From Escherichia coli (lineage in GTDB: Bacteria > Pseudomonadota > Gammaproteobacteria > Enterobacterales > Enterobacteriaceae): a stretch of DNA of 64,000 bases. The position numbers were made by a program. The stretch lies in NCBI RefSeq assembly GCF_003790525.1, contig NZ_CP033635.1, one strand, 5' to 3'. The stretch's first letter is position 1. Each line of letters begins with the position of its first letter. Of this stretch, positions 21,001-24,000 are shown one piece after another.

Positions 21001-24000
21001 GCTGGCGGCTATGCTTCACGGAGGATTGCAGGACATCGAAGAAACCGCGCATGGTTTGCAGCAGCACGATGTTATGCGAGGCTTCGGCAATCGCCAGATG
21101 AAAACGAACGTCCGCTTGCGAAGCGAGGTCCGGGTCTTCGCTGAGCGTTGCTTCAAAACAAAGCTGAATCTTTTCTTTGTCGCCAGGTGTGGCGCGCATT
21201 GCCGCATGCCACGCGGTGCTGGCTTCAATGGCGTAGCGGGCTTCCAGAATATCGAAACTGTAATCCGGATCATCGGCCATCAGCGTTTTCAGCGGCTGGA
21301 CGATGTTTTGCTCCGACCATGTGTCATGACGCCAGCGAATAAACGTCCCGCCGCCACGTCGACTGAGCAGCACACCTTCGCTTACCAGTTTCGCCAGCGC
21401 CTCGCGCAGTGAATTTCTCGACACGCCGAGTTGCATCGCCAGTTGACGTTCAGCGGGCAACTTCATGCCCGCTTCCAGGTTTTTTTCATCAATCAGCGCC
21501 CGCACACGATCGGCAACCTCGTCTGACAGGCGTCTGGGTAAAACAATCATTAAGGAATCATCCACGTTAAGACATAGGCCTGAAGCGTGGTGATCACGCC
21601 CACCATACAGGTGAAGATCAGGCTGTGTTTGACAGTAAAGCGGAACAAATCAGACTCTTTGCCCACCAGGCCTACCGCCGCACAGGCGATAGCGATAGAT
21701 TGCGGGGAGATCATCTTACCGGTGACGCCACCGGTGGTATTGGCGGCAACCAACAACAGGTCAGAAACGCCAATTTGTTGTGCGGCGGTAGCCTGCAAAG
21801 CGGCAAACAAAGCATTAGATGACGTATCCGACCCGGTCAGGAATACCCCAAGCCAGCCGAGGAACGGCGAGAAGAAGGTGAATGCATGACCGGTGTGCGC
21901 CAGTGCCAGCGCCAGTGTTGATGACAAACCGGAATAGTTCGAGATAAAGGCGAATGCCAGCACCATACCGATGGAGTAGATGGGCAGAGCCAGTTCTTTC
22001 AGCGTGCTGCCGAAGGTGCTGATAGCGTCAGATGGTTTCATCTTCAGCCAGACAATCGAGAGCAGGGCAGCAAACAGAATGGCGGTACCGGTGGCAGAGA
22101 ACCAGTCAAACTTAAACACGGCGGCATACGCTGTCGCTTCGCTGACCACTGGCGGCATACGGGCAACCAGTTTATCGAGGTACGGCACCGGAATGTTGAT
22201 CACCCACTCATACAGCGCACCGCCTGAAGCGAACAGGGCTTTAAACGGCGGGATACTCCACAGCGTTACGGTGGCGGTCAGGAACAGGAACGGTGTCCAG
22301 GCGCGCAGCACCTGACCTGCCGTGTAACCTGTGTGAGCCAGCGTCATATCAACCTGTGACGCCCCTAAGTCACCGAAGCGGAATACGCGCACTGGTTGCC
22401 AGCGTTTGAGGAACAGCGTCAGGCAGAGCAGTGATACCAGCGAAGAGATAATGTCTGGCAGTTCCGGCCCAATGAAGTTAGAGCTGAGGTATTGAGCAAT
22501 GGCAAACGAACCACCTGCAACCACGACCGCAGGCCACGTCTCTTTGATACCGCGCCAACCGTCCATAATCGCCATGATCCAGAACAGCACGATAATGGTC
22601 ATAAACGGCAGCTGACGCCCCACCATCTGACCAATCTCAAAGCTGTCGATGCCTGTTACCTGCCCGGCGACCAGAATCGGAATACCCATCGCGCCAAATG
22701 CCACTGGTGCGGTGTTAACAATCAGGCACAGTCCGGCGGCGTAGAGTGGTTTAAAGCCCAGACCGACCAGCAATGCGGCGGTAATTGCTACCGGTGCGCC
22801 AAAGCCTGCGGCTCCTTCAAGGAAAGCGCCGAAACAGAAACCGACAATCAGCATTTGCAGGCGCTGGTCAGGGGTTATCGAAAGAATAGACGAGCGGATG
22901 ATGTCAAACTGCCCGGTTTTCACCGAGATCTTATAGACGAACACCGCTGCAATAATGATCCACGCGATGGGCCACAACCCGTAGAAGAAGCCATAAACCA
23001 CCGAGGCCAGCGCGTTAGCGACCGGCATTTTATAGAACAGCAAAGCCACGGCAAGGGCGATTGCCACCGTCCATGAGGCGGCGACGTATCCTTTCAGTTT
23101 GAGCTTAATCAGCGCAAAGAAGAAAAACAGGATGGGAAGCGATGCTATCAGGCTGGAAAGCCAGATATTCCCGGCGGGATCGTAGTTTTGTTGCCAGAGA
23201 TTCATTGCAGGTCTCCTGCAGTCCACACACGCCGTGTAATGAGTCTGTTGCTCATCTCCTTGTCACACGTTGTGTAAAAGTGGCACTGCCAATTGTGTTG
23301 TGTAGGGATAATGACAATGGATAGTTAACTAAATGTTATGCATTAGCAACATTGATGTGAGTTTTAATTGGGAAATTGTGAACCAGAGGTCAGATAAGCG
23401 AAGAATTGGTAGGGCCAATTCTTGGTGGAGGGAGATGTCTGGTAAAGAAAAGGGCAATCCTCATCAGAGAATTGCCCTTAGTCACACTAAGTTAATGGAT
23501 CATTACCACTGAATACCGGCACCGAGTGCGGCGGAGTATTCACCCTGGCTATTGGTACTACCTTGTAATTTGTAGACCCAACGACCATTGGCGCTCACCA
23601 TCGACACACCTAAAGCAACAGCCGATTCACCGTTGTAAGTACCACCACCAATAGAGGCCATGCTGGCTCCCGGCGTGTAAGCCTGCGGCAGACCGGTCAT
23701 TGCCATTGCGGAAGCGATACCACCGCTCAACTTGCTTTCGGTTTTGGACAGTTTGTTATCCATCTCAACCATGCGCTGATCGGTGTATTGCTTCGTTTCC
23801 TGCACACTTTGCTTCAGCTGCGCATAGTTCACCGCGTCGTTGTTGTTCACGCCAGCAGAAACGTTGCTGATGCGAGTCGTACCGCCATTTCCGCCACCGA
23901 GAGTGATGTTGCTGTAGTCGATAGAGCCATCAGCTTTGGTGTCGTAGCGAACGCCGCCTGCTTCAGAAGACTTCAGTTGTGAAACGTTAACCGCATCGGT

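Follow-up and report, generated by a model that had tools for sequence, protein, structure and literature searches.

An inverted repeat upstream of lldP in an Escherichia coli chromosome matches the published LldR operator O1 of lldPRD

Related operators and the LldR switch

The closest described counterpart of the site considered here is operator O1 of the lldPRD operon in E. coli K-12 (Aguilera et al. 2008; Anzai et al. 2023, PMC10272880), to which it is identical over 17 bp. In genomic SELEX (gSELEX) with LldR, the spacer between yibL and lldP (yibL>lldP) gave by far the strongest peak genome-wide (62.9, with at most 13.8 elsewhere); the LldR boxes listed for it (PMC10272880, Table 1) are AAtTGGcCctACCAaTT and AAgTGGcactgCCAaTT, which, the authors of that paper state, correspond to the pair of sites described by Aguilera et al. 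2008. The sequence AATTGGCCCTACCAATT is required for LldR binding (PMC3582500). The LldR sites flank the transcription start, with O1 farther upstream than -80 and O2 beyond the start; repression needs both sites and activation needs the upstream one (PMC3424551, PMC5412874, PMC8689689, PMC7969014). The literature also describes an ArcA operator between O1 and O2 and repression of lldPRD by ArcA.

Three further groups of operators can be compared with O1. The sites of FadR-subfamily GntR regulators, such as LldR of C. glutamicum and D-LldR of P. fluorescens (AATTGGTA-T-TACCAATT), share the inverted repeat TGGT...ACCA with O1 and are, like it, bound by a dimer whose winged helix-turn-helix domains make the contact. 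These sites are usually single, lie at or after the start and serve a pure repressor that is released by its ligand, whereas E. coli lldPRD combines a distal site (~-97) and a proximal one (~+30) with a dual repressor/activator role. The PdhR box of the pdhR-aceEF-lpd promoter, bound by a FadR-subfamily GntR protein paralogous to LldR, shares with O1 the half-site ATTGGT/ACCAAT and the 17-bp geometry, although one half-site of O1 reads TGGC instead of TGGT, a deviation that is kept across genera. At pdhR, the single box is a simple repressor site; lldPRD, in contrast, responds to lactate through LldR, with two boxes flanking the start, the upstream one for activation. As for its overall layout, lldPRD resembles lac O1/O3, gal OE/OI and araO2/I1 in that two operators bracket the promoter at a distance of integral helical turns. 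The lldPRD spacing is held within 1 bp across genera, but unlike in the lac, gal and ara systems, looping is a proposal, and a test on a heterologous promoter did not reproduce it.

According to the proposed mechanism, O1 would be the high-affinity upstream site and O2 a weaker one past the start, within the transcribed region. Without L-lactate, LldR would occupy both operators and its dimers would interact, so that the promoter is probably looped out and repressed; with lactate, LldR would stay on O1 and act as an activator. In the literature, looping by LldR is a proposal drawn from helical-phasing mutants. In a massively parallel reporter study, LldR sites moved to lacUV5 gave neither looping-type synergy nor proximal repression (PMC7804116). 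LldR was elsewhere described as mainly an activator, an effector-dependent change of its DNA binding not being seen in vitro (PMC10272880), and for the Salmonella orthologue lactate was reported to prevent binding at the lldPRD promoter region (PMC9775004). The published accounts thus differ on the details of the switch.

The operator pair upstream of lldP

We analysed a stretch of 64,000 nucleotides from E. coli contig NZ_CP033635.1, referred to below as the window. The lldPRD operon lies on its minus strand and starts with lldP, encoding the L-lactate permease (21550-23205; NCBIfam NF007740, 1199.5 bits, cut-off 918), followed by lldR for the lactate-sensing GntR/FadR-family regulator (20774-21550; NF007741 (LldR), 499.9 bits, cut-off 311) and lldD for the FMN-dependent L-lactate dehydrogenase (19587-20777; NF033901, 824.3 bits, cut-off 550). 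The intergenic region upstream of lldP is 100% identical to that of E. coli SMS-3-5, where the RefSeq annotation lists the same genes. LldR of the window and LldR of a K-12-type strain are identical at 256 of 258 positions; both differences fall into the C-terminal domain, and the N-terminal DNA-binding domain with its helix-turn-helix region is the same in the two proteins. On the PdhR model the window LldR scored 182 bits, and among solved structures those of PdhR are the nearest to it.

The original prediction placed a perfect 17-bp palindrome at 23404-23420 in the lldP upstream region. The 17-mer is found exactly there, reading AATTGGTAGGGCCAATT on the plus strand and AATTGGCCCTACCAATT, its reverse complement, in the sense of lldP; 199 bp separate the lldP ATG from the proximal end of the box and 215 bp from its start. 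The description as a perfect palindrome was wrong, since self-complementarity is confined to positions 1-6 and 12-17, around an asymmetric centre of five bases, TAGGG. What is perfect is a larger inverted repeat of 9+9 bp with a 5-bp spacer (23401-23423), AAGAATTGG-TAGGG-CCAATTCTT, the arms of which (23401-23409 and 23415-23423) add three pairs to the 6+6. There are 20 inverted repeats of the 6+6/5 type in the 64-kb window and only four of the 9+9/5 type. The three other perfect 9+9 repeats with a 5-bp spacer are located at ~52287, 52368 and 55088, two of them 81 bp apart.

The pattern AATTGG-N5-CCAATT, with at most one mismatch, occurred twice in the 64-kb window while 0.27 occurrences were expected from shuffled sequences, so the O1 inverted repeat exceeds chance. 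Both boxes lie within one intergenic region, 126 bp apart. When two mismatches were allowed, the same pattern fell to chance level in the window (6 found, 4.7 expected). Among matches of this grade, AATTGGTTGTGCGAATG at 28998-29014 (plus strand) fits the LldR/PdhR box pattern ~120 bp upstream of the start of a DUF3251 gene. Two-mismatch matches being at chance level, it was taken as a chance occurrence.

The sense-strand 17-mer is the same at 17/17 positions as the LldR-binding sequence given by PMC10272880 and PMC3582500, and a full-text sequence search retrieved it from PMC10272880, PMC3582500 and PMC7660256. Compared with the gSELEX-derived LldR box, AAnTGGTCnGACCAnTT, O1 matches at 12/14 positions. 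The second box, O2, is located at 23278-23294 (plus strand AAGTGGCACTGCCAATT, sense AATTGGCAGTGCCACTT), starts 89 bp upstream of the lldP ATG and is the second published LldR box. From centre to centre, O1 and O2 are 126 bp apart, which corresponds to ~12.0 helical turns at 10.5 bp per turn. The site is thus almost certainly the already published operator O1 of lldPRD, bound by an LldR dimer. Its assignment to a dimeric regulator and to the GntR/FadR-type LldR operator class is supported by the published sequence identity together with the second box: the comparison with published LldR operators, which might have brought up an unrelated sequence, returned the identical 17-mer, and the copy sought past the transcription start was found in O2, which published work places after the start.

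Between a K-12-type strain and the window, the flanks of the extended palindrome, O2, the 126-bp distance and the operon are all the same, and LldR is 99% identical. The site itself does not differ from K-12 O1; the strain background does differ upstream. From the K-12 data on the identical sequence, we infer that LldR binds O1 in this strain too, and the K-12 data on mechanism should be transferable because the operators and the DNA-binding domain of LldR are identical.

Aguilera and colleagues reportedly placed the transcription start 110 nt before the lldP start codon, with O1 spanning -105 to -89 and O2 +22 to +38. With these coordinates and the ATG at 23205, the lldPRD start would presumably be at 23315 on the minus strand, and both boxes come out at exactly 23420-23404 and 23294-23278. 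The putative start at 23315 draws on this internal consistency. A sigma-70 consensus scan of the region found no promoter. Between O1 and O2, the sequence GTTAACTAAATGTTA at 23324-23338 (plus strand), read directly, overlaps the putative core promoter/-10 region and resembles an ArcA box. In the cross-genus alignment it was partly conserved. As a candidate ArcA box, it would fit the published ArcA repression of lldPRD. The lldP leader also contains a 17-codon open reading frame (23203-23256, minus strand), the TGA of which overlaps the lldP ATG. It is probably meaningless as an upstream reading frame: in most genera it has no start codon, and its Shine-Dalgarno-like AAGGAG abuts the ATG.

Conservation of the operators and their surroundings

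The intergenic region was present in 5,420/5,426 complete E. coli genomes. A 33-mer containing O1 occurred once per genome in 5,122/5,426 of them, on the chromosome only, with none on plasmids. O1 was invariant in eight diverse E. coli backgrounds, one of which carried IS200 ~30 bp upstream. Because an alignment of E. coli sequences only (92% mean identity) was too shallow to show constraint, we ran a cross-genus scan, in which a degenerate pattern for the sequence encoding the LldP N-terminus, independent of the operator, was run against one genome per species. It returned 57 lldP loci, spread over about a dozen genera of Enterobacteriaceae. Relative to the ATG, O1 was at -211 to -218 in all loci with enough upstream sequence, and the O1-O2 spacing was 126 bp in 49/56 loci and 125 bp in the remaining 7/56. 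Wherever the sequence was available, lldR followed lldP. The distance from O1 to lldP was unchanged whether the upstream gene was yibL, an adhesin gene or IS200, and in most genera the yibL stop preceded O1 by ~40-50 bp. The fixed spacing of the two operators is consistent with the looping model, although it is no proof of it.

In the alignment of 54 distinct upstream sequences, the 15-bp core ATTGGCCCTACCAAT was 98.8% conserved, O2 90% and the inter-operator region 75%. Conservation dropped to 45-48% in the three bases on each side of the 17-mer (AAG/CTT) and was 53% further upstream. The three outer pairs of the 9+9 repeat were specific to the Escherichia lineage, and outer pairs 3-7 were complementary in 6-15 of the 55 distinct orthologous sequences, i.e. 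at about the rate expected by chance. The central five bases, read in the sense direction, were CCCTA in 46/55 distinct sequences, CCCAA in 8/55 and CCATA in 1/55. An invariant asymmetric centre with freely varying flanks points to a duplex site recognised by a protein rather than to a stem-loop. Judging from these alignments, function resides in the 15-17 bp box, and the 23-bp extended palindrome is a lineage-specific accident.

The upstream neighbourhood varies. In the window, the minus strand carries a gene for a YadA-like trimeric autotransporter adhesin of 1,549 aa (23503-28152), the positional counterpart of ehaG in O157:H7. The gene ends in a strong terminator-like hairpin (23450-23479, minus strand; -21.5 kcal/mol, then a T-run) 27 bp upstream of O1. 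One arm of this hairpin, GAGAATTGCCCTT, resembles the left half and centre of O1, AAGAATTGGCCCTA. In the K-12-type strain, yibL is upstream, the adhesin gene is absent and the terminator hairpin is kept as a remnant; the chromosome studied here is of the SMS-3-5 type, with the adhesin gene. In Escherichia, a DUF3251 gene and the adhesin gene (together 23503-28879, minus strand) are located between yibL and lldP, and an adhesin gene was also seen in Citrobacter youngae. In most other Enterobacteriaceae, yibL lies directly upstream of lldP. The DUF3251 and adhesin genes therefore look as if they had been inserted beside a regulatory region that is itself conserved. In E. coli PRO_A-1028-6W-A_ESBL, the adhesin terminator region has given way to an IS200C transposase gene, which reaches as far as the sequence directly before O1 (~30 bp away), and both operators are intact.

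Two assemblies with unexpected labels also turned up. A metagenome-assembled genome (MAG) labelled Oscillospiraceae contained a typical enterobacterial yibL-lldP locus with proteins 99-100% identical to those of E. coli, and a contig labelled Chryseobacterium sp. 18061 had an enterobacterial-type YibL (83% identical to E. coli) directly upstream of lldP. Both loci suggest mis-binning or contamination in public assemblies.

Alternative readings and significance of O1

The alternative that survives best is that O1 is primarily, or additionally, an operator of the pyruvate-sensing PdhR, which would repress lldPRD and so make lactate oxidation depend on the level of pyruvate. With 13/14 positions in common, O1 is closer to the PdhR box AATTGGTnnnACCAATT than to the gSELEX-derived LldR box; the paralogy of the two regulators, seen also in the PdhR-model score and the nearest solved structures of LldR, points in the same direction. 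Moreover, a PdhR gSELEX peak at yibL>lldP is listed with exactly the O1 sequence, and lldPRD mRNA was 3.3-fold higher in a pdhR mutant (PMC7660256). However, the PdhR gSELEX intensity at O1 was modest, 632-943 compared with ~9,900 at pdhR itself (PMC7660256), and lactate induction depends on lldR (PMC10272880). O1 was also linked to lldR in every genus examined, and PdhR as the sole function of O1 is contradicted by the LldR data. According to Aguilera and colleagues, a pdhR mutation is said to have had no effect on lldP-lacZ expression, which counts against a role of PdhR. Taken with all this, a PdhR function of O1 is possible but somewhat doubtful.

The 9+9 repeat might instead act as a hairpin and not as a protein site, either in the form of a cruciform or, where the adhesin transcript ends, as a further terminator or a stabilising stem-loop. 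On the sense strand the stem folds at -9.2 kcal/mol (z = -4.7 compared with shuffles), and it lies ~27 bp downstream of the adhesin terminator hairpin. Against this, no T-run follows the stem, O1 being succeeded by CGCTTATC, and a terminator scan called only the hairpin at 23450-23479 and not the 9+9 stem. In the orthologous sequences the Escherichia-specific outer stem pairs, which pair elsewhere at about chance rate, showed no covariation, and the 5-nt "loop" is nearly invariant, the opposite of what would be expected for a loop. O1 is also present, equally placed, in genera without an adhesin gene upstream. We consider this reading very improbable: a hairpin role for the 9+9 repeat is unlikely and largely refuted by the comparative data. 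The notion that O1 arose by chance or belongs to a dispersed REP/IRU-like repeat family and has no specific function, which could appeal to the commonness of 6+6/5-bp inverted repeats in the window and to the chance frequency of two-mismatch boxes, has practically no standing and is refuted by the excess of boxes with at most one mismatch and their 126-bp distance, by the single-copy chromosomal occurrence of the O1 33-mer, which is not of the REP/IRU type, by the uniqueness of O1 in the window, and by the sharp cross-genus footprint at O1.

With O1 taken as the LldR operator, its asymmetry calls for comment. In about a dozen genera, the bases that break the symmetry, TGGC in place of TGGT in the left half-site and CCCTA in the centre, hardly vary. 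It is conceivable, though we would not count it as probable, that this conserved asymmetry is functional and that O1 serves as an integration point of two regulators. If so, the asymmetry might orient the LldR dimer for its contact, as an activator, with RNA polymerase, or tune the occupancy by LldR relative to PdhR.

O1 is an already known, experimentally characterised, textbook-level operator, and it has already been used in synthetic lactate biosensors. The outcome changes nothing in what is known about it; the operator reading was right and the premise of a perfect palindrome was corrected. The sequence identity, O2 and its conserved distance from O1, the phylogenetic footprint, the lldP-lldR linkage and the identity of the DNA-binding domain were observed here, and actual binding, the repressor and activator roles and looping would follow for this chromosome from the literature on the K-12 sequence. 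The comparative data place constraint only on the 15-17 bp box and not on the 23-bp extended palindrome, and they confirm, independently and across genera, that lldPRD has two operators at a fixed spacing of 125-126 bp.
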